A stretch of DNA of 64,000 nucleotides from an uncultured Candidatus Saccharibacteria bacterium (lineage in GTDB: Bacteria; Patescibacteriota; Minisyncoccia; Phycocordibacterales; UBA12088): assembly GCA_964562615.1 (NCBI GenBank), contig CAZLUD010000001.1, positions 129,072 through 193,071 on the forward strand, read 5' to 3'. A model generated the notes under the pieces. That model made no database searches and had not been told where the DNA came from. It was given only the letters and a program-made list of their open reading frames with translations. Made by a program: the position numbers and the translations under genes. Every line of letters starts with the position of its first letter. The first letter of the stretch is position 1. This document shows, piece by piece, positions 4,017-64,000 of this stretch.

Positions 4017-5201
4017 ATGGATATCGGTATAGGCAAAAAAATCGTCACTGGCATTGATATTGGCACCTCACACATAAAGGTGGTGATTGCTGAGTACTCA
4101 CAAAAAAACCCAAGTGCCATTCCACACATACTTGGTACCGGCGCCGCTCTCTCTAAAGGACTTCGTCACGGCTACATCATCAATAAAAGCGACACCGGAA
4201 GAAGTATACGCGCAGCGCTTCATCAAGCAGAAAAAGCAGCAGGCGTAAAAGTAAAAAAGGCATACCTTGCCGTAGGAGGCGTAGGGCTAGATGAGGTGCG
4301 ATCAAGCGGAGAAAGCATAACCTCACGAGCTGATCAAGAAGTCACCAGTCTTGATATCGCTCATGCGATTGAAGACGCAGAAGAACGAGTGGCGACAAAA
4401 ATCCAAAACAGAAAAATCCTTCACGTTATCCCGCTTCGATACAGACTTGATGGCGCGCCCGTGTTGGGTCGCCCACTTGGTATGAAGGGTAACAAGCTCG
4501 AAGCAGAAGTGCTCTTTATCACCAGCTTAGAGCAGCACCTTGAAGACCTCATCAGCACCATTGAAGACAGTGGTATTAGCGTCGTTGATGCAATGGCTAG
4601 TCCCCTTGCCGCAAGTTTTGTTACCCTTACCAAATCACAAAAGGTCGCGGGTGTTATGCTTGCAAATATAGGTGCTGAGACTGTATCAGTTGCGGTATTT
4701 GAAAATAATATTCCTATTTCATTAAAGGTATTCCCGATTGGCTCAACCGACATCACCAATGATATCGCCTTAGGGCTCAAAGTATCACTTGAAGAAGCCG
4801 AGCACCTAAAGCGTGGCACGCTTAGCAACTCAGAGCATCCACAAAAAAAGCTTGATCAAATAATCTCCGCTCGTCTTTCAGACATCTTTGACCTCATTGA
4901 TGCGCATCTTTCAAAAATTGGCAGAAACGGGCTTCTCCCTGCGGGCATTATCCTCACCGGCGGAGGCTCTGGTATCACCACTGTAGAAGATATGGCTCGC
5001 GCCACATTAAAGCTCCCGTCAAAGATTGGTCACATCATCGCGCAAAACGGCAATGGGGCTAAGTTTAAAGATTCATCATGGGCAGTATCATACGGACTCA
5101 CCATATGGGGCATGAGCGCTGACGAAGATTCGTTTGGCGTTGAGGTTGCAAAAAAAACCGGGAGCACGCTTATGTCATGGATAAAGCGCTTTTTGCCGTA
5201 G
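4017..5201 (+). CDS. ftsA: cell division protein FtsA
   Basis: GIDIGTSHIKVVIAE is the actin-like phosphate-1 motif. FtsA-like architecture, and it sits immediately upstream of ftsZ. Confidence 0.9.
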   Translation: MDIGIGKKIVTGIDIGTSHIKVVIAEYSQKNPSAIPHILGTGAALSKGLRHGYIINKSDTGRSIRAALHQAEKAAGVKVKKAYLAVGGVGLDEVRSSGESITSRADQEVTSLDIAHAIEDAEERVATKIQNRKILHVIPLRYRLDGAPVLGRPLGMKGNKLEAEVLFITSLEQHLEDLISTIEDSGISVVDAMASPLAASFVTLTKSQKVAGVMLANIGAETVSVAVFENNIPISLKVFPIGSTDITNDIALGLKVSLEEAEHLKRGTLSNSEHPQKKLDQIISARLSDIFDLIDAHLSKIGRNGLLPAGIILTGGGSGITTVEDMARATLKLPSKIGHIIAQNGNGAKFKDSSWAVSYGLTIWGMSADEDSFGVEVAKKTGSTLMSWIKRFLP

Positions 5202-55262: not shown

Positions 55263-57806
55263 TTACTTTGTATCTTGATGCGTCATATAAATCGATCGGT
55301 ACGGATTAGTTTCTACTGCCGTTGCATGAAGTAGCTCAATCTGCGATCTGATCGTAGCCATTATTTCATCATCAGTCTCAGTAGTAAACCTAAGTGGGGC
55401 GCCAATAACTACCGACACTACCCCTTGGCGTGGGATGATTTCATTCTTTTTTAATATGTACGAAAGCCCATAATGAGCAATCGGAACGACTGGCACCTTC
55501 AGTGCGCGAATAAGATGCGCGGTTCCTCGCATAAACGGAAGCATAGCAGCATCATCACCTCGTCTACCCTCAGGAAACATAAGTAGTGATTCTCCACCAT
55601 CTACCACACGACCAGCGTATTGCAGCGATTTTGAAAACCCATCTTGTTGACGCAACAGAAACGCCCCTGCTCCAAATCGCACAAGCAAAAGAATACCTCG
55701 ATACCACATACGCATATACACTGACGCCTGCGGTCGGTGGTAATAGGTATCTGCAGTAGGAGTCGCAAGAAGATATCGATATCTATATGGTAGCGCTCGT
55801 ATGATAACCGAATGATCAGCACTGCTTACATGATTGGTAACAATCATGATAGGTTCCCTTGTAGTAGGAATATGCGCTCTCCCTACAACCTTTAGTGTTA
55901 TAAAGCACGCACTTATCGCGCTTTCAAGTAATGATAAAAGCACGCGAAGCGCTCTACCCATTGGAGTATGGATACCACGAAACCCTACCGCTCTGTGTGT
56001 AGTCTTTTTTCTTTCTTGTATATACCTCTCTATATCAGCAACAGTGGTATGTGAGGTTATCATTTCTTCTGCTAACTCGTAGTTATATTCACGAGCAATT
56101 GCTGCAAGAAGTTCTACCCTTCCTAATGAATCAAGTCCCACCTCACTTATGAGTGTTTGCTGAGGGGCAATAGTAGAGGCGTCCTTACCAGTAACTGATG
56201 CGAGTAAATCGTACAATCTAGACTGTCGTGACGAGCTAGACGAGCCACCTGGGGTAGTGCTAGTAACAAACTTTTTTACCAATGTTCGTTTAGTTTTGAG
56301 AGTGGTCGTTTTAGGAAATTCACGCTCATGCCAAAGACTATATCCTTGTATACGCATCGCGCTTGACAGTACATCATTTGCTCGCTCAACCACATCCTTT
56401 GCATCAGTAGTACCGTCCGCAAGTATCACTACCGCATGTATTGCTTCACCATGTTCGCGCGGCACACCAACCACGCACGCCTCCTTTACTCGTGAATCTT
56501 CCAAGAGCACACGCTCTATATCATCAGGAAATATATTGATGCCTGATGAGGAAAGGATCATTTCTTTTACTCTGCCGCTTACAACAAGATTGCCGTCATC
56601 GTCCATATAGCCGATGTCGCCTGTTTTAAACCACCCATCGCTCGTAAAGGCATCACGGGTAGCCTGTTCATGGTGATAGTACCCGGCAAAGACATTAGGA
56701 CCTTGTACCTCTATTTCTCCTTCTTTTGAAAACCGAACCGACACGTGTGGAAATTCTTTACCAACCGTACCCCACGCTTTATTGGTCGGAGAGGTAGCCG
56801 CAATCACGGGAGATGTTTCAGTGAGTCCATATCCCTCGTATATGGATATACCAACATTTCTCCAGAATGTAGCAATAGAAGGTGACAGTGGCGCACCACC
56901 AGATACCATGTACTCAAAATGAGATCCAAATGCCTTATGGATTTTTCTAAACAACATCTTTTTAACAAATAACGGTGACGTACTCGCTCGCTCGCTAAGG
57001 CGCATAAGCGTGTCGTATGTACCCGCCTCTTTTGCTCTTGCTAGCACTCCTGCATACATCGCCTCGATAAGGCGTGGTACCACCAGCATGTGTGTTATCT
57101 TTTCTTTTTTAAGAAGCACAAACAATGCTGACGCAATAATTGCGCTTGGATATACAATTGTACCCCCCAGCAAAAGCGGCACCCACAACCCCCCTACCTG
57201 CTCAAACATATGTGACAGTGGAAGCGTAGAGAGAACACGAACCCTCTTTCCAAATGAAAAATGAGTTGCCGCACCGCAAACATTTGCAGTTACATTTTTG
57301 TGGGTAAGCATAACCCCTTTTGGGTCACCAGTGGTGCCAGAAGTGTACACAATGTACGCAAGATCACTTTCCTTACATACCGAAGCAGGAATACCGATAC
57401 ATGACTCGATACAATATAAAAAATCTTCGAGCACATAGGTGGGTACCCCTATGTTCAGTAATCGATACTTACTTTTAAGCACCAATCGCGCGTGCGCCCT
57501 GGTGACAATAACCTCTGCAGAAGTACTGGTTGCTTGTACATCTATAGGGACAACTACCGCACCGATCGATAGAGCACCAAGACTTGCAACTACCCACTCG
57601 ATACCATTTAATCCCCACACCACAATCGTGTCTCCTTTATGTACACCTTGCGCGACATACCATGCGCTCGCTTTTTGTATCAGCGTATGCAATGTGGCAT
57701 ACGTATATCGAAAGGTTCGATACCCGTTATGCACCACAATCGCTTCATCCATACGCGATGCGTGTAGCGAAAGTATGTCTACAAGCGTCTTTGGATTTTG
57801 ATACAT
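55263..57806 (-). CDS. tri-domain fusion: acyl-CoA/acyl-ACP synthetase (AMP-binding) - acyl carrier protein - 1-acylglycerol-3-phosphate acyltransferase (PlsC)
   Basis: YTSGTTGDPKGV (AMP-binding). GLDSLGRVELLAAIARE (ACP Ser-attachment DSL). NHVSSAD (HX4D acyltransferase) and FPEGRRG. Confidence 0.8.
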   Translation of the reverse strand: MYQNPKTLVDILSLHASRMDEAIVVHNGYRTFRYTYATLHTLIQKASAWYVAQGVHKGDTIVVWGLNGIEWVVASLGALSIGAVVVPIDVQATSTSAEVIVTRAHARLVLKSKYRLLNIGVPTYVLEDFLYCIESCIGIPASVCKESDLAYIVYTSGTTGDPKGVMLTHKNVTANVCGAATHFSFGKRVRVLSTLPLSHMFEQVGGLWVPLLLGGTIVYPSAIIASALFVLLKKEKITHMLVVPRLIEAMYAGVLARAKEAGTYDTLMRLSERASTSPLFVKKMLFRKIHKAFGSHFEYMVSGGAPLSPSIATFWRNVGISIYEGYGLTETSPVIAATSPTNKAWGTVGKEFPHVSVRFSKEGEIEVQGPNVFAGYYHHEQATRDAFTSDGWFKTGDIGYMDDDGNLVVSGRVKEMILSSSGINIFPDDIERVLLEDSRVKEACVVGVPREHGEAIHAVVILADGTTDAKDVVERANDVLSSAMRIQGYSLWHEREFPKTTTLKTKRTLVKKFVTSTTPGGSSSSSRQSRLYDLLASVTGKDASTIAPQQTLISEVGLDSLGRVELLAAIAREYNYELAEEMITSHTTVADIERYIQERKKTTHRAVGFRGIHTPMGRALRVLLSLLESAISACFITLKVVGRAHIPTTREPIMIVTNHVSSADHSVIIRALPYRYRYLLATPTADTYYHRPQASVYMRMWYRGILLLVRFGAGAFLLRQQDGFSKSLQYAGRVVDGGESLLMFPEGRRGDDAAMLPFMRGTAHLIRALKVPVVPIAHYGLSYILKKNEIIPRQGVVSVVIGAPLRFTTETDDEIMATIRSQIELLHATAVETNPYRSIYMTHQDTK

Positions 57807-57820
57807 ATACGAGTAGTGTG

Positions 57821-58132
57821 TTAAGTAAGTAATACTACCGCTGTGGCATATTCACCATCATGACTTATTGATACACTCGTAATCGTATCATCGCCCACTC
57901 GCAAAAAGGGCGCACCACTTTCTTCGTGGCAAACCTCAAGCAGTAACCAGTCAATCTTCTTACCTATCGCCTTACAATACGCCTCCTTAACGGCAAGGTA
58001 TCCACCGGCGCGCTTTGTATCATTATGTAATGACCGCATTTCAGCATCAGTAAATAGACGCGCGCACTCTTCAGTGCTTGAAAGTAAGCGTTCTACCCGA
58101 CGTATGCTGACTAAATCTATTCCTACCCGCAT
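57821..58132 (-). CDS. acpS: holo-ACP synthase (4'-phosphopantetheinyl transferase)
   Basis: MRVGIDLVSIRRVERL and AVKEAYCKAIG ... W.DIE pattern; 103 aa; immediately upstream of the ACP-containing fusion. Confidence 0.7.
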   Translation of the reverse strand: MRVGIDLVSIRRVERLLSSTEECARLFTDAEMRSLHNDTKRAGGYLAVKEAYCKAIGKKIDWLLLEVCHEESGAPFLRVGDDTITSVSISHDGEYATAVVLLT

Positions 58133-58173
58133 TGGTAGTAGTATACCAGAGCTGTGCTATGCTTTTTGACATG

Positions 58174-58620
58174 GCGATTATTCATAACAAAAAGGCATCA
58201 TTTAACTTCGAACTCTTGGAGAGATTCGAGGCTGGTATAGAGCTTTTTGGCCACGAAGTAAAGGCAATAAAAGCCGGAAAAGCACATCTTGAGGGCGCGC
58301 GGGTACTAGTACGAGGGGGTGAAGTATATCTTGTTGGCGCTACTATATTTGCCTACCAAGAAAGCAATAGCCCTAAAACGTATAATCCCATGCGCAACAG
58401 AAGACTGCTTCTCCATAAAAAAGAAATGCTCCAGATAGCAAGTGCGGAGGCCACCAAAGGGTTGACAATAGTGCCAATTTCGATGTATAATAAAGGTAGA
58501 AAATTGAAGCTTGAGATTGCTATTGCTCGCGGAAAAAAGTTGACAGATAAGCGAGAGACAATAAAGAAACGCGATACCAATAGAGATGTTGAACGCGAGA
58601 CTAAGTTCAAACTTAAATAG
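58174..58620 (+). CDS. smpB: SsrA-binding protein SmpB
   Basis: NKKASFNFELLERFEAGIELFGHEVKAIKAGKAHLEGARVLVRGGEVYLVGA aligns with the SmpB core. Basic C-terminal tail. Confidence 0.9.
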   Translation, partial: AIIHNKKASFNFELLERFEAGIELFGHEVKAIKAGKAHLEGARVLVRGGEVYLVGATIFAYQESNSPKTYNPMRNRRLLLHKKEMLQIASAEATKGLTIVPISMYNKGRKLKLEIAIARGKKLTDKRETIKKRDTNRDVERETKFKLK

Positions 58621-58710: not shown

Positions 58711-59091
58711 GGGGATGATTGGCCTCGACAGTGAGTATGTGTTGCATAGTGTGCGAGTTCGTGTGAGGTGACACGGTAAAAACATCTCAACCAATACGTG
58801 CTACAAAACTTCGCACGGCAATTCTTTCACCTTTCCAGATGAAGGATTTTGCACTCGCTGTAGCCTAAGGCTCGCGACATCCTACAGAGTATTGTCTGAT
58901 AGCTTTGTAACGGTGTAATACCATCAGAACCGCAGAAAGGGTGCATCGCCTTATCTGTTAAATAATGATGCTATATGGTATCGGCTTTTGACGAATTTTC
59001 TATCGACACCACGAACCAACAAATTCGCCAAGACTTCGTAGACTCACTATGCACTCCTCTCTGGATGCGGGTTCGATTCCCGCCATCTCCA
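58711..59091 (+). ncRNA. ssrA: tmRNA (SsrA), standard one-piece
   Basis: 5' GGGGATGATTGGCCTCGACAG (tRNA-like half). Candidate tag ORF GCA-ATT ... GCACTCGCTGTAGCCTAA encodes AILSPFQMKDFALAVA-stop. 3' GGATGCGGGTTCGATTCCCGCCATCTCCA, whose acceptor pairs with the 5' GGGGATG. Confidence 0.8.
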
Positions 59092-59093
59092 CA

Positions 59094-59573: not shown

Positions 59574-60101
59574 ATGAAATCACCGACCATCGAATCTGGT
59601 TCCTATGTTATAAGACCGTTTAAGACGAGTGATGCCGAATTGTGGCAAACGTGGGATATTGATCATGAAGTGCAAGCATTTATGCCGGAGCCGTTTAATG
59701 AACCACAAGAAATTAAGGAGCAGTACGCATACATAAAAGCATGTGATGCTGATGAAGAAGGATACTACTGGTCAATTGAAACGAAGGACGGAGTCACAAT
59801 TGGTACCATCGCACTCACAGAATACAATGACTACCATGGCGTTGCTAATCTCGGTATTGTTATCGGAGATAAAAACTATTGGGGCAAAGGGGTTGCAACG
59901 GAGACCATCACTACTCTTGTCGACTATGCATTTACGAATCTAAATCTTTTCTATATTAGCGCTGAAGTTGAGGAAGGAAATATTCCGATGATGAATGTCC
60001 TAGAAAAAGTCGGGTTCAAACAAGATGGTTTATTTGAATCAGCTCGGGTAAAAAATGAAAAACGAATCAATGTTCACCATTTCAGTATTGTTAAGTGGTA
60101 A
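59574..60101 (+). CDS. GNAT acetyltransferase, RimL/RimJ-like
   Basis: SYVIRPFKTSD ... GVANLGIVIGDKNYWGKGVATE ... NIPMMNVLEKVGF matches the RimL-type GNAT. Confidence 0.8.
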   Translation: MKSPTIESGSYVIRPFKTSDAELWQTWDIDHEVQAFMPEPFNEPQEIKEQYAYIKACDADEEGYYWSIETKDGVTIGTIALTEYNDYHGVANLGIVIGDKNYWGKGVATETITTLVDYAFTNLNLFYISAEVEEGNIPMMNVLEKVGFKQDGLFESARVKNEKRINVHHFSIVKW

Positions 60102-60604
60102 TGAATATTTATATGAAAAGCATAAAAATAACCCCCATTAAACAACGAGACGCTAGTGCCTGCGGACCTACCAGTATTGAAATGACTCTGAAATACTTTG
60201 ACGTACCACATACAGTCGCGGATATTACTAGGATAACTAACTATAAAAAAGAAGGTGGCATATACAACAAACAACTGGTGGGCGTGCTACAACACTATGG
60301 CCTTAAGACAAAAGTTTTGAAGAATACCTCTTGGGAACAACTGATGGGACTAAATACCAAAGATTCTGTGATAATTCTTTCTTGGATGCTTGATGGCTAC
60401 ATTGGACACCTTAGTGTTTTGGATAATGTTGATAAAGACCATATCTATCTCGCAGAACCTACAACTGGAGAAATATTAAGGATAGGTAAGATAAAGTTTC
60501 TCAGACTCTGGTTAGACTACGAGGCTAAAGCTGAAGTACCGTTATTCCCCGAATCAAAGTCTGACATTCAACTGAGGTGGTTGTGTATTGCATCGAAACC
60601 ATAA
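60095..60604 (+). CDS. stand-alone peptidase C39-like cysteine protease
   Basis: IKQRDASACGPTSIEMTLKYFDV (Gln oxyanion plus Cys nucleophile as in C39), a later GHLSVL His and an Asp. 7-nt overlap with the GNAT gene. Confidence 0.6.
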   Translation: MVMNIYMKSIKITPIKQRDASACGPTSIEMTLKYFDVPHTVADITRITNYKKEGGIYNKQLVGVLQHYGLKTKVLKNTSWEQLMGLNTKDSVIILSWMLDGYIGHLSVLDNVDKDHIYLAEPTTGEILRIGKIKFLRLWLDYEAKAEVPLFPESKSDIQLRWLCIASKP

Positions 60605-60661: not shown

Positions 60662-61891
60662 TCACTTTTTCAGACTTACCCAATGCAGTACTTTCATGAG
60701 GATATGGAAGACCAGGCTGGTCGTCATATCATCACGATCGAGTGCTGGACTAAGTTCGACGACATCCATGCCAACAACCTGGTTGTGCTCAATAACCGCA
60801 CGTAACAACTTCAGCAGCGCCTGCGGGGTCATGCCGAGCGGTACAGGAGTACCAGTTCCAGGAGCGAAAGATGGGTCGAGTACATCAACGTCGAAACTGA
60901 TATAGCACTTCCTCCCTTTTGGCAGCCTAGTTGCAAGCACATTAGCCAGTCCTTCTTCGATGACGACCTGAGTTGTTGTCTGACACCTTTCTTCCCCAAG
61001 GGGAGCACCGGCAAAACCACGCACTCCAAACTGGAGCAAATGGGCAGTTGGGTTTTCATGCACAACCCGTCGCATGACGTTGCCATGATGATGCTCTGAA
61101 CCAACTTCCCACTCCCCCATGTCTGTGTGCGCATCCAGATGGATGATGACTATCTCTCCGTGGACTTCTGTACACGCACGAATGAGTGGCGCAGAGATTG
61201 AGTGGTCTCCCCCAATGAAGACAGGAAATGTACCACTCCGATGTGACAATAAAGCGCCCCGATAGCAACGCTCATAGACAGTCGCAAGAGATTCCCCCGT
61301 TCGATACGCAACATTGCCCAGATCTCCAAACGGAACTCCTTCAAGGATCACAGTCCCTAGGTCGGCGTTATACCAACCACGGTTTCTTCTGGTAAAGATA
61401 TCCCGCTCGTAAGCCAGAAACTTCGCCGAAACTTCACGGAGTCGATCCGGACCAAAGCGAGTACCGGGATTGCCGGTCGCCGCCTGGTCTAGACATACCC
61501 CCGCCACAACGATTGTTCCTTCTTCGAGACTACACACATCGACTGCAGGCGAGTACACGAACGGTGTTCGCGCACTAACAAATAAGGTTTCCCTATCGAC
61601 AACCAGCGGCTCTTCAGCTTTTCCGTCTACTACTTCAATTAGAAAGAAAGCTTCAGCAAACGCAGCAAGAATCAATAGAAATTCCTCGTACGGTTCACCC
61701 CCAGCCACTCCAAGCTCCATCGCTGCTTCATGCGTACTTTTAACTACACGGAAAGCTACGAGGATCTTCAAGGACTCCTCAGTCAGAGAAAGCCGATGAC
61801 CAGTCCGAGTGTTGTGTAGCACAACCCCATTCTCGCCATCTTCACTTTCAAGCATGAGGTGTCTTGATACAACATACGAATCAGTACTCAT
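60662..61891 (-). CDS. arginase/agmatinase-family (ureohydrolase) enzyme with N-terminal RRE/PqqD-like domain: candidate peptide arginase
   Basis: GGDHSIS, IIHLDAHTDM, SFDVDVLDPSFAPGTGTP and MDVVELSP ureohydrolase Mn-binding motifs. The N-terminal 90 aa, VVLHNTRTGHRLSLTEESLKILVAF, is PqqD-like. ATGA start/stop overlap with the upstream gene. Confidence 0.75.
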   Translation of the reverse strand: MSTDSYVVSRHLMLESEDGENGVVLHNTRTGHRLSLTEESLKILVAFRVVKSTHEAAMELGVAGGEPYEEFLLILAAFAEAFFLIEVVDGKAEEPLVVDRETLFVSARTPFVYSPAVDVCSLEEGTIVVAGVCLDQAATGNPGTRFGPDRLREVSAKFLAYERDIFTRRNRGWYNADLGTVILEGVPFGDLGNVAYRTGESLATVYERCYRGALLSHRSGTFPVFIGGDHSISAPLIRACTEVHGEIVIIHLDAHTDMGEWEVGSEHHHGNVMRRVVHENPTAHLLQFGVRGFAGAPLGEERCQTTTQVVIEEGLANVLATRLPKGRKCYISFDVDVLDPSFAPGTGTPVPLGMTPQALLKLLRAVIEHNQVVGMDVVELSPALDRDDMTTSLVFHILMKVLHWVSLKK

Positions 61892-62997
61892 GACTCTCCT
61901 CTCTTGTGCCCACAGTATGGGCACGTATGCCGTTTTCTGAATTTGCGGAAGTTGATGTCGTAGGTACGAAAATCCAACTCCGCAACCTTATTGGTCATCG
62001 TTGGTTTCGAGAAACCAGTAACGACCTTCACCGCATCCAATACATGATAGTTTGCGGTGATCGCGCAAATAGCAGCGATATTTCCACCCTTAATGTGCGT
62101 ATTAGTAACTGCCAATTGCTGATACTCAGCTCGATGAAGCTGTTTATTAAGCGCGTGCTCATAGCAGTACCAACACGCTGATTCTCCAGGAATGACCGTT
62201 GGTCCGATAAAGCTTAAGTGTCCATCATACCCACCGCAGAGAATATGAGGCACTTGTAGCTCAAAGCAAACTTCCGTGACAATCCGATTAACCACATCCG
62301 TACTCGGATCATCCGCACAGGAGATAATCAAACTGCTACCTCGCATCCCCACAAGGCAATCTTGTGGTGACACAACTTGCTGTGCAATACCCTGGACTGA
62401 GATTTCAGCATCAATGGAACAGAGTTTTCGTTCCGCCACTTGAACCTTTAGGGATCCGACGTCATCAACATTGAACAAACACTGTCTGTTCAAGTTTGAT
62501 ATTTCTACTACGTCTGGATCGATGAATGTAAAGTTACGGGCACCAGCCAGAGCAAGACCTTGGGCAACCCAAGTACCAATCCCTCCCAAACCGATTATCG
62601 CAACCCGCGCTCTATGTAAACGCTCTTGCATCACTTCGCGGGATTGGGTTCTTGTCTCAAACTCCGCAAAGAAATTACGCTGGGTTGCAAATTTATCTTG
62701 GTCAATAACGGCAGGATGCTTTTTGGTAGCCAGTACCCGACTCTTTTGGAGTACAGATACCAGTCGCCGCACCTCTATGATTGGGAGGCCTGCTTTCCTT
62801 GCTATCTCTTCGATTGAATGCAAACCATCAAAATATTGCAAGCAACCAAAAGCCTCTTTGTTAAGTTGAAACGGCAGGACAACACTACTTGCATTGAAGA
62901 GAAAGTTCACTTCATAGACATCTCGAACACCTCTGTACAAGACAGAGATACTGTCTTTGACCCGTGGAAACACTGCATGGACTCCTTCCGTAGACAT
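61888..62997 (-). CDS. ThiF/MoeB/MccB-like E1 adenylyltransferase with N-terminal RRE-like peptide-binding domain and C-terminal Cys4 zinc site
   Basis: ARVAIIGLGGIGTWVAQGLALAGARNFTFIDPDVVEISNLNRQ (E1 nucleotide-binding). CWYC ... CPYC. The N-terminal ~110 aa, FNASSVVLPFQLNKEAF ... SIEEIARKAGLPIIEVRRLV, is winged-helix/RRE-like. Confidence 0.8.
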   Translation of the reverse strand: MSTEGVHAVFPRVKDSISVLYRGVRDVYEVNFLFNASSVVLPFQLNKEAFGCLQYFDGLHSIEEIARKAGLPIIEVRRLVSVLQKSRVLATKKHPAVIDQDKFATQRNFFAEFETRTQSREVMQERLHRARVAIIGLGGIGTWVAQGLALAGARNFTFIDPDVVEISNLNRQCLFNVDDVGSLKVQVAERKLCSIDAEISVQGIAQQVVSPQDCLVGMRGSSLIISCADDPSTDVVNRIVTEVCFELQVPHILCGGYDGHLSFIGPTVIPGESACWYCYEHALNKQLHRAEYQQLAVTNTHIKGGNIAAICAITANYHVLDAVKVVTGFSKPTMTNKVAELDFRTYDINFRKFRKRHTCPYCGHKRGES

Positions 62998-63082: not shown

Positions 63083-63111
63083 TTGACAAAGATAACAAGT
63101 GCAACTATTCT
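63083..63111 (+). promoter_or_regulatory. sigma70-like promoter for the small peptide gene
   Basis: TTGACA at 63083-63088, 17-nt spacer, TATTCT at 63106-63111. Confidence 0.4.
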
Positions 63112-63164
63112 TCAAATAAACAAGCAAGTGGGTTGCTTGTTTCAACCCTCATCAGGAGAATCCT

Positions 63165-63311
63165 GTGCAACAGAGTGTTCCATCGATAAAGACTGGACCA
63201 AAGAATAATTCGAAAGACATGGCAGTCGATCTCAAGAAAGTGGTAATCAAGCGACTGCAACGTCGACACAGTGATGTCTACATGCGTGGACTGCGTCGTC
63301 CCCGTGCGTAA
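63165..63311 (+). CDS. 48-aa Arg/Lys-rich small peptide, candidate RiPP precursor (GTG start)
   Basis: RBS aggaga 5 nt upstream of the GTG start. MQQSVPSIKTGPKNNSKDMAVDLKKVVIKRLQRRHSDVYMRGLRRPRA. Promoter upstream and a strong terminator 25 nt downstream. Divergent from the enzyme genes. Confidence 0.35.
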   Translation: MQQSVPSIKTGPKNNSKDMAVDLKKVVIKRLQRRHSDVYMRGLRRPRA

Positions 63312-63335
63312 TTGGCCAATAGTCTCTGGTCAAGG

Positions 63336-63366
63336 GCGGAAACCAGATGTGGTTTCCGCCTTTTTC
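63336..63366 (+). terminator. rho-independent terminator
   Basis: ggcggaaacc-agatgt-ggtttccgcc followed by tttttc. Confidence 0.8.
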
Positions 63367-63633
63367 ATTTGCTATATAAACGCAGAACAACTAATCATCT
63401 CGCTAATGTAGATCCATGGCGATTTTAAACGCGTTACCATGGACGACGTAAATGACGCGCTCAAATGGCTAAGACCTGATCGAAGATGGACACTCATAAC
63501 ACAGCCGTAGAGGCAACTCCCCACCTTACAGATTGGCAAACCAATCTGTAAGGTGTTTTTTTATGCCGATAATCATACTTTATCCAATGAAATATCCTCC
63601 ACAGATTGGTGTAATAAGAGTAGTATGCGGGGT

Positions 63634-64000
63634 ATGGAGTCCGAAAGCGATGAAATAGTAGCGGGCAAAGTGCAATCGGGCGATACCGACGCTTTTGGGG
63701 TATTGATGGATAGGTATGAGGCAAAAATAACCCGTTATGCGAGTAAGTTTTTGTACTCGTACGATGATAGACTCGATGCCGTACAAGAGGTATTTCTTCG
63801 GGCGTACACCCACATTCAAAGTTTCAAAACACACGAGAAATTCTCTCCATGGTTATATCGCATTGCGCATAATACATTTCTCAATATCATACGCACACAA
63901 GGAAGAGAAAAAATATCATTTGTTGATCTCGATATCCTCTTCCCTTCCGGTATCCCTGATGAGCAAGAAGAAAGAACCATGCTCTCTACTGAGTATCCGC
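63634..64000 (+). CDS. ECF-type RNA polymerase sigma factor (partial, runs off the window end)
   Basis: DAFGVLMDRYEAKITRYASKFL ... VQEVFLRAYTHIQSF ... FSPWLYRIAHNTFLNIIR matches sigma-70 region 2. Confidence 0.7.
   Translation, partial: MESESDEIVAGKVQSGDTDAFGVLMDRYEAKITRYASKFLYSYDDRLDAVQEVFLRAYTHIQSFKTHEKFSPWLYRIAHNTFLNIIRTQGREKISFVDLDILFPSGIPDEQEERTMLSTEYP

Follow-up and report, generated by a model that had tools for sequence, protein, structure and literature searches.

The 64,000-nt stretch of DNA analysed here (hereafter the window; contig CAZLUD010000001.1 of an uncultured Candidatus Saccharibacteria bacterium, positions 129,072 to 193,071) encodes a ThiF-like enzyme related to MccB, the microcin C7 synthetase of E. 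coli, next to an arginase-family protein and a small Arg-rich peptide. Judging from their sequences, the MccB-like enzyme and the arginase, which carries a docking domain of its own, very probably modify the adjoining peptide. On balance, we favor the view that the ThiF-like open reading frame (ORF) is the peptide-activating enzyme of a cassette for a peptide that is made by the ribosome and modified after translation (RiPP). The cassette would consist of the precursor peptide, the ThiF-like enzyme with a RiPP recognition element (RRE), a translationally coupled arginase with a similar element, a C39 peptidase, and a GCN5-related N-acetyltransferase (GNAT). The ThiF–arginase–peptide gene set is conserved in many Patescibacteria, and neither the ThiF core nor the arginase nor the C39 peptidase has lost any of its predicted catalytic residues. 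The coordinates of the features are given in Table 1.

The ThiF-like enzyme has the domain order of the MccB-type, peptide-directed E1-like enzymes. This was proposed in a first-pass annotation of the sequence, which described an RRE-like N-terminal domain, a ThiF core, and two CxxC pairs. Each part was confirmed, the N-domain by an AlphaFold2 (AF2) model and Foldseek, the core by Pfam PF00899, and the Cys pairs by their invariance, and the order itself holds in the sequence, profile, and full-length fold comparisons. The usual length of the homologues is 361 residues, compared with 369 for the window ORF, so the GTG at 62973, eight codons into the ORF, may be the true start. In the AF2 model (pLDDT 89.4, pTM 0.86), the N-domain has strands at residues 10–13, 17–24, 27–34, and 40–46, helices at 47–53, 62–69, and 73–85, and a further strand at 89–92 after the helices, and the Rossmann core follows. 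Profile scans gave weak winged-helix matches, HTH_NPRL3 and HTH_47, for residues 47–90. In 23 family members, the predicted ATP/Mg residues (G136xGGxG141, D160, R171, K184, and D229) vary little or not at all, and they align with those of MccB. Both CxxC pairs are invariant in the same members and align with the CxxC pairs of MccB; they are predicted to form a structural Zn site, as in MccB. The family has a motif of its own, HILCGGYDGHL, at the beginning of the crossover loop, in place of the YINAGYVNDI of MccB; every position in it is invariant except C254 and L261, and these two are each conserved in at least 90% of the members.

The closest solved protein to the enzyme is MccB, whether it is judged by sequence, profile, or fold. 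In a phmmer search of the PDB, MccB was the best match at 2e-27, followed by PaaA at 2.5e-19 and ThiF/MoeB at about 2e-18. A family profile built from 23 members scored MccB at 168 bits, ThiF at 117, MoeB at 115, and PaaA at 113, and its alignment to MccB spans MccB residues 49–349. With Foldseek, the model matched full-length MccB over 361 columns, N-domain included (TM 0.72, E 1e-22). PaaA was the second-best match (E 4e-19, TM 0.69), and ThiF and MoeB matched the core of about 270 residues alone, with a TM of 0.55. About 75 full-length homologues were found, nearly all of them from metagenomes or metagenome-assembled genomes, and those that are labeled carry the names Patescibacteria, Saccharibacteria, Paceibacterota, Kaiserbacteria, or Peribacteria. 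A neighbor-joining tree of 49 sequences, built on 219 columns of the catalytic domain with 100 bootstraps, has the family as monophyletic in 82 of them. The first-pass annotation had named a placement of the enzyme within MoeB/ThiF proper as the outcome that would contradict its reading. This is not what the tree gives, as 97 of the 100 bootstraps split the family, together with MccB and the other peptide-linked ThiF-like enzymes, from the ThiF and MoeB of E. coli. Furthermore, the scores against the NCBIfam equivalog models for ThiF (TIGR02356, 98.7) and MoeB (TIGR02355, 82.6) are far below the respective cut-offs of 275 and 376.

The peptide encoded divergently from the ThiF gene, which ends in RRPRA, had been named as a candidate precursor, and it proved to be a real and conserved partner. 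Its 30 distinct homologues align without any gap over the last 30 residues, giving the consensus x(I/V/L)(D/N)xxK(V/L)xIxxL(P/G)RRxDD(V/I)YMR(G/T)(L/V)RR(R/P)R(A/S). The sole invariant residue is Arg(−8), counted from the C-terminus (30/30). R(−2) and R(−4) are found in 29 of the 30 sequences, R(−5) and L(−18) in 28, and D(−13) in 22. The distance from the strand-like motif K(−24)-(V/L)-x-I-x-x-L(−18) to the C-terminus is fixed, while the total lengths run from 30 to 55 residues, with many of just 30–31. Five close relatives keep the Shine–Dalgarno (SD) sequence and the start codon, and their pN/pS over the final 29 codons is 0.07–0.38; the precursor is under purifying selection. The gene was missed by the gene callers used for these contigs, and the peptides match no Pfam or NCBIfam family. 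The precursor gene was found in about 30 lineages, each time within about 1 kb of cassette genes. In some loci it is upstream and on the same strand, and in others upstream and divergent, which is the arrangement of the window; elsewhere it stands before a C39 gene that is itself ahead of ThiF, or comes downstream of the arginase gene.

The C-terminal residue of the precursor is Ala in 28 of the 30 sequences and Ser in the other two. None ends in Asn, so the succinimide and N–P chemistry of MccB cannot apply as such, and the suggestion in the first-pass annotation that the chemistry differs from that of canonical MccB is upheld. A tiny MccA-like ORF ending in Asn was also sought upstream of the ThiF gene, and none is conserved there. 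Which carboxylate, then, could the enzyme activate? The precursors of L005 and L017 have no Asp or Glu within the conserved 30 residues, and thus no carboxylate other than the C-terminal one is shared by all the precursors. A side-chain carboxylate as the substrate was ruled out on these two sequences and on the presence of D(−13) in only 22 of 30.

Five precursors (L008, L009, L018, L022, and L079) have a Cys at −10 or −11, within VCMRG or KCG(L/M)RG. Seven lineages have a GNAT gene and no C39 gene, and these five are among them; the precursors of C39 loci have Tyr or Gly there. By analogy with the GrcB thiolactone, the thiol of this Cys is a possible alternative nucleophile. In the window lineage, another strong hairpin (63522–63555, + strand) comes after the precursor gene on the same strand, and beyond it lie a gene for an extracytoplasmic function (ECF) sigma-70 factor and two genes whose function is unknown. 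The sigma gene extends past the window end. This region, 63522–64000 in the window, was noted at 4763–5320 in L001 and at 710–1267 in L133, and the arrangement is not conserved in other lineages.

The arginase gene is translationally coupled to the ThiF gene, since the ThiF stop codon and the arginase ATG overlap as ATGA (61888–61891), with GGAGAG just before. The catalytic domain, at about residues 125–409, has the motifs GGDHS, DAHTD, and SFDVDVLDP, which are invariant in the family. The predicted Mn ligands D229, H230, D253, H255, D257, D334, and D336 are invariant in 27 arginase sequences. By the motif definitions of PMC12703449, the protein belongs to PF00491 and not to the OspR-type family PF12640. 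The catalytic domain superposes on agmatinase and guanidine hydrolases (1WOG, E 5e-27; 7ESR, 1.6e-34 by sequence). The N-domain matches no curated family in Pfam or NCBIfam scans. However, its order of strands and helices is identical to that of the ThiF N-domain, and hhalign shows the two to be homologous (probability 91.7%, E 7.7e-7). Two unrelated catalytic domains that share one docking domain and are translationally coupled are best explained by their acting on one and the same peptide. The coupled arginase, with its homologous putative peptide-binding N-domain, thus points to ornithine (Orn) formation within the chemistry. Activity on peptide-bound Arg, like that of KgrD, is predicted from the fused docking domain.

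In two loci, L014 (5016–6322) and L073 (4517–5759), the arginase gene is present as two overlapping ORFs, the result of a frameshift (pseudogene) or else of faulty assembly. Proteins of the arginase family that are about 400 residues long and have N-terminal extensions also occur outside Patescibacteria, at L131 (6001–7224) and L132 (6001–7233), with no ThiF partner. One of these is in a deltaproteobacterial locus and adjoins a DSBA-like gene. The other lies within a cluster resembling those for fatty acids or polyketides, with AMP-binding, PP-binding, and ketosynthase genes. Such arginases from outside the candidate phyla radiation (P0166, P0183) were set aside as belonging to a different context, with no adjoining ThiF gene.

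The gene neighborhoods were compared in 36 lineages, defined as ThiF clusters at about 90% identity and drawn from genomes and metagenomes. An arginase-family gene directly follows ThiF, its start overlapping the ThiF stop, in all Patescibacteria lineages with enough downstream sequence, with two exceptions. In the metagenomic locus L077 (527–1706), ThiF is followed by a 123-residue ORF of unknown family and then by an insertion sequence (IS) transposase with an rve integrase core, and no arginase gene was found; this suggests that the cassette was disrupted by IS insertion. In L082, a convergent histidine kinase gene follows a ThiF fragment. The ThiF–arginase pair is adjoined by the C39 gene, the GNAT gene, or both. 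The GNAT gene is present in about a third of the lineages, and the window has both. The C39 protein is a stand-alone domain of about 160 residues, with no fusion to an ABC exporter. In identical and near-identical genes, its start is called at the ATG at 60113, giving 163 residues, and its predicted catalytic residues C23 and H105 and oxyanion residue Q17 are conserved in 27–28 of 28 sequences. A pairing of long precursor leaders with C39 and short ones with GNAT was considered and dropped as inconsistent, for L007 and L016 combine C39 with peptides of 30 residues. The examined loci have no conserved MFS (major facilitator superfamily) gene, S66 peptidase, MccC-type MFS protein, or MccD/F homologue, and none has a YcaO gene. 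In the 10 loci with Pfam context, the called genes include none for a ThiS/MoaD-type carrier, a result that does not extend to the whole window. An anti-phage system and a phage-borne element were also considered and rejected. PADLOC gave partial E1 Rossmann matches to Cap2-type E1–E2 models and nothing for the other three proteins, and the viral contig scan gave generic ThiF fragments and nothing else.

Table 1. Features of the ThiF–arginase cassette in the window (positions count from the first letter of the window).
Feature	Position	Strand	Description and basis
GNAT N-acetyltransferase gene	59574..60101	+	Acetyltransf_3; nearest to polyamine/antibiotic amine N-acetyltransferases
C39 cysteine peptidase gene	60095..60604	+	Stand-alone; convergent with the arginase gene; PF03412 at 3.9e-11
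RRE–arginase fusion gene	60662..61891	-	409 aa; PF00491 at 5.6e-63, agmatinase-like
Arginase N-terminal domain	61622..61891	-	Residues 1–90; secondary structure, hhalign with the ThiF N-domain
RRE–ThiF gene (MccB-like, ThiF-like adenylyltransferase)	61888..62997	-	369 aa, ATG start; homology, fold, tree
Second CxxC of the ThiF enzyme	61912..61923	-	C359-P-Y-C362; alignment
ThiF/E1 adenylation core	61921..62637	-	Residues 121–359; Pfam ThiF PF00899, E 6e-44
First CxxC of the ThiF enzyme	62164..62175	-	C275-W-Y-C278; alignment
Family-specific motif HILCGGYDGHL	62215..62247	-	Residues 251–261; start of the crossover loop
Putative N-terminal winged-helix/RRE-like peptide-binding domain	62713..62997	-	ThiF residues 1–95; AF2 secondary structure, Foldseek, profile, homology to the arginase N-domain
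Sigma-70-like promoter site	63083..63111	+	TTGACA-17-TATTCT (10/12), upstream of the precursor gene; sequence
SD sequence AGGAGA	63154..63159	+	Five nt ahead of the precursor GTG; sequence
Precursor peptide gene	63165..63311	+	48 aa, GTG start, MQQSVPSIKTGPKNNSKDMAVDLKKVVIKRLQRRHSDVYMRGLRRPRA; divergent from the ThiF gene; homologues
Conserved last 30 residues of the precursor	63219..63308	+	Gapless alignment
Terminator-like hairpin	63332..63363	+	14-bp stem and T-rich tail, 21 nt past the precursor stop; sequence

Every characterized ThiF-like enzyme activates a carboxylate (PMC12250964, PMC12596934). With one ATP, EnfB and GrcB form a peptide acyl-adenylate; a nucleophile within the same molecule then traps it, and an imide, amide, or thiolactone results (PMC12250964). 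This serves as our working model for the cassette. The conversion of Arg to Orn is also established in RiPPs: OspR, FlmR, and OhkR (PF12640) and KgrD, the PF00491 enzyme of the enteropeptins, are Mn ureohydrolases that act on peptide Arg (PMC12703449, PMC10028609). We propose that both N-domains bind the K(−24)-(V/L)-x-I-x-x-L(−18) segment of the precursor, as RREs and the MccB clamp bind peptides, so placing the tail R(−8)(G/T)(L/V)RR(R/P)R(A/S) in both active sites. The ThiF core, with ATP and Mg, would adenylate the C-terminal α-carboxylate of the Ala or Ser. The arginase would hydrolyze the guanidino group of at least one peptide Arg to give Orn and urea, with Arg(−8) as the prime candidate. 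The δ-amine of the Orn could then capture the acyl-adenylate, forming a lactam between the side chain and the C-terminus, which would be an eight-residue polycationic ring if the Orn is at −8. Removal of the leader would fall to the C39 peptidase, and the GNAT would transfer an acetyl group to a free amine, either as tailoring or as self-protection. An Orn-to-C-terminus lactam is the likeliest product, being the most economical link between the two activities, and a lactam of constant, eight-residue size formed from Arg(−8) would fit the absence of insertions and deletions in the precursor tail. The full proposal, that arginase-made Orn(−8) and the adenylated Ala or Ser close an eight-residue, Arg/Orn-rich, side-chain-to-tail macrolactam of a new ribosomal peptide class, is tentative, and we regard it as doubtful in this exact form.

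Several observations weigh against the cassette being a peptide-modifying pathway of this kind. Curated RRE and PqqD profiles (Pfam and NCBIfam scans) match neither the ThiF N-domain nor the arginase N-domain, so the assignment of these domains as RREs rests on fold and on the analogy with MccB. The arginase catalytic domain is nearest to enzymes with free substrates (agmatinase and guanidine hydrolase), and the NCBIfam agmatinase model scores it at 182, just over the cut-off of 174. A conserved double-glycine site (GG/GA/GS) for C39 was sought in the precursors, and none was found. The comparison of the gene neighborhoods shows no conserved exporter adjoining the cassette. Finally, the invariance of R(−8) could mean recognition by a protease or another enzyme, rather than modification.

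With MccB as the nearest characterized homologue, the product might instead be a nucleotide conjugate like microcin C. The enzyme would then attach AMP or another NMP, for example, as a phosphoramidate to the Orn freed by the arginase or to the lactam nitrogen, to make an Arg-rich Trojan-horse inhibitor, and the GNAT and C39 proteins would provide self-immunity in the manner of MccE and MccF. It agrees with this that the C-terminal residue is always Ala or Ser and that a GNAT of the Acetyltransf_3 family is present, which we take to be the Pfam family of the MccE immunity domain as well. However, the Asn required by the succinimide route is missing from every precursor, the MccC-type MFS and MccD/F homologues are not conserved, the crossover-loop motif is unlike that of MccB, and the GNAT is found in only about a third of the lineages; we therefore consider a nucleotide conjugate unlikely. 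The activated C-terminus might also be passed to an amine outside the peptide. This could be a small amine, such as putrescine or Orn from the arginase domain, in an amidation of the EnfB type, or a protein lysine, in a tagging reaction like that of Pup or ubiquitin with the papain-like C39 protein as the processing or deconjugating protease. EnfB does amidate an activated C-terminus with free amines (PMC12250964). The agmatinase score is in keeping with small-amine substrates, and a cassette that is exporter-free is widely retained in very small genomes. The nearly invariant Cys254 is also suggestive, because E1 enzymes have their catalytic Cys in the crossover loop. Nevertheless, Cys254 is Ser in two of the 23 members, there is neither an E2-like nor a ligase gene, the peptide has an Arg-rich tail with no terminal Gly-Gly, and the arginase's own peptide-docking domain is hard to explain if its substrates are free amines. 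We judge such an intermolecular ligation quite unlikely.

A variant in which the order of events is changed has the Arg guanidine attack the adenylated C-terminus to give a cyclic acyl-guanidine, from which the ureohydrolase would leave a C-terminal ureide or carbamoyl group and Orn. The gene and domain anatomy is the same as for the lactam, and ureohydrolases of this family do act on substituted guanidines (proclavaminate amidinohydrolase, guanidinobutyrase). The sequences give it no preference over a route in which Orn is formed first, and we know of no precedent, which we count against it; this route seems very unlikely. There is, lastly, the prosaic explanation that a MoeB/ThiF sulfur-carrier adenylyltransferase and a polyamine agmatinase are merely adjacent, or that the ThiF-like protein is an inert E1-like docking protein as in the thiazole/oxazole-modified microcins (TOMMs). 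The Pfam ThiF and NCBIfam agmatinase models do match. TIGR03882, the TOMM leader-binding domain, is above its cut-off over residues 256–366, and TIGR03603 matches in part. TOMM docking proteins are not known to have intact ATP-site residues, whereas those of this enzyme are intact, and no locus offers a YcaO partner; the docking protein was rejected on these two grounds. The housekeeping pair was rejected as well, in view of the equivalog scores, the tree, the extra N-domains on both proteins, which are homologous to each other, and the strict linkage of the ThiF–arginase pair to the precursor; among the called genes, there is also no ThiS/MoaD carrier for it to serve. Taken together, these housekeeping explanations are extremely improbable. 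The reading of the ThiF-like ORF as the activating enzyme of a RiPP-type cassette is the one we retain.

Some other genes near the cassette and in related loci may be recorded. In the window, an SmpB gene (58132–58620, +) is followed by a tmRNA gene (58711–59092, +), whose predicted 22-residue tag peptide (ATKLRTAILSPFQMKDFALAVA) is unusually long. On the other strand, the region 55263–58132 holds the gene for an 847-residue fusion of AMP-binding, PP-binding (acyl carrier protein, ACP), and PlsC-type acyltransferase domains, with a gene for a 4′-phosphopantetheinyl transferase (57821–58132) just upstream. By domain content, the fusion looks like an Aas-like acyl-ACP synthetase/lysophospholipid acyltransferase. 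Only the closest relatives show synteny here, and the fusion lies outside the cassette. In L083 (region 1931–2116) and L087 (region 429–647), the nearest ThiF-like relatives that have no arginase partner, at about 31% identity, stand beside tandem short ORFs. These ORFs have good SD sequences and GSC ends, for example, MISMEKVSEVKVLAHEEKNGSC and MKKVHETKIYLGDKNGSC, and in L083, an MFS transporter gene comes after the ThiF gene. A K-V-x-E-x-K-(V/I)-x-L segment in their peptides is similar to the leader motif of the cassette, and these peptides probably represent another uncharacterized ThiF-like RiPP family.

ThiF-like adenylyltransferases (TLATs) are an emerging class of RiPP enzymes with four characterized chemistries, those of MccB, PaaA, GrcB, and EnfB. 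We found no paper on a ThiF–arginase pairing in RiPPs, on the peptide motif, or on such clusters in Patescibacteria, in a search that covered subscription literature poorly, so that an earlier description is possible; two 2025 reviews of ThiF-like enzymes mention neither arginase nor ornithine. The cassette apparently represents a conserved, uncharacterized branch of ThiF-like RiPP pathways. To this class, it adds the pairing of an E1-like enzyme and an arginase with a shared docking domain, as well as an Arg-rich substrate that is defined, strongly conserved, and ends in a residue other than Asn, and it spans many Patescibacteria lineages, whose genomes are reduced. It could yield a new ATP-dependent tool for peptide cyclization or ligation and an RRE-guided Arg-to-Orn enzyme. 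If the macrolactam is true, it would be a ribosomally made ring of polymyxin-like topology, which may act on host or neighboring cells.

How does the cassette compare with known systems? On the arginase side, agmatinase (SpeB), guanidine hydrolase, and proclavaminate amidinohydrolase have the same catalytic fold and metal ligands, but they act on free small molecules and do not have the N-terminal docking domain of about 120 residues. Among the peptide arginases, KgrD shares its Pfam family, PF00491, with the protein described here. It has radical-SAM neighbors, whereas the arginase here has none. In contrast to OspR, FlmR, and OhkR, the motifs of the present arginase are the canonical ones, GGDHS, DAHxD, and SxDxDxxDP. 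The protein differs from these peptide arginases and from KgrD in its fused RRE-like N-domain and its translational coupling to a ThiF-like enzyme.

On the ThiF side, the E1-like docking proteins of TOMM systems (McbB/SagC type) likewise combine an E1-like domain with an N-terminal RRE, but they work with YcaO and dehydrogenase partners, which are not found here, and the nucleotide-binding residues of the present enzyme are intact. PaaA, the pantocin A enzyme (PDB 5FF5), also has an RRE and an E1-like fold, and its precursor is about 30 residues long, within the range of lengths seen here. However, PaaA activates Glu side chains in an EEN motif, whereas two of the precursors here are free of acidic residues in the conserved 30. 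EnfB (enterofaecin) and GrcB (GRC streptococcal RiPP), compared here by their descriptions, have the same RRE–ThiF architecture. Their precursor cores are different (WWIVI and Glu...Cys), they have no arginase partner, and they belong to Firmicutes quorum-sensing loci.

The closest comparison is with MccB itself (PDB 3H5A, 3H9J, and 6OM4). It likewise has an N-terminal peptide clamp/RRE followed by an E1/ThiF domain, a Zn-type CxxC...CxxC arrangement, conserved ATP/Mg residues, and a short ribosomal peptide encoded beside the enzyme gene. The identity is only about 20–30%, and the crossover loop of the present family has an invariant GGYDGH. The MccB substrate is a peptide of seven residues that ends in Asn, while the peptides here are 30–55 residues long and end in Ala or Ser. 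MccB spends two ATP to form a peptidyl-nucleotide phosphoramidate. Where microcin C has MccC (the MFS exporter), MccD, MccE, and MccF, the cassette has an arginase, a C39 peptidase, and a GNAT. By sequence, then, the enzyme is a member of the MccB/TLAT-type clade that departs from microcin C in the C-terminal residue of its substrate and in its partner genes, and it has the features by which a TLAT RiPP is recognized, namely an RRE and a ThiF domain beside a short, co-varying precursor.

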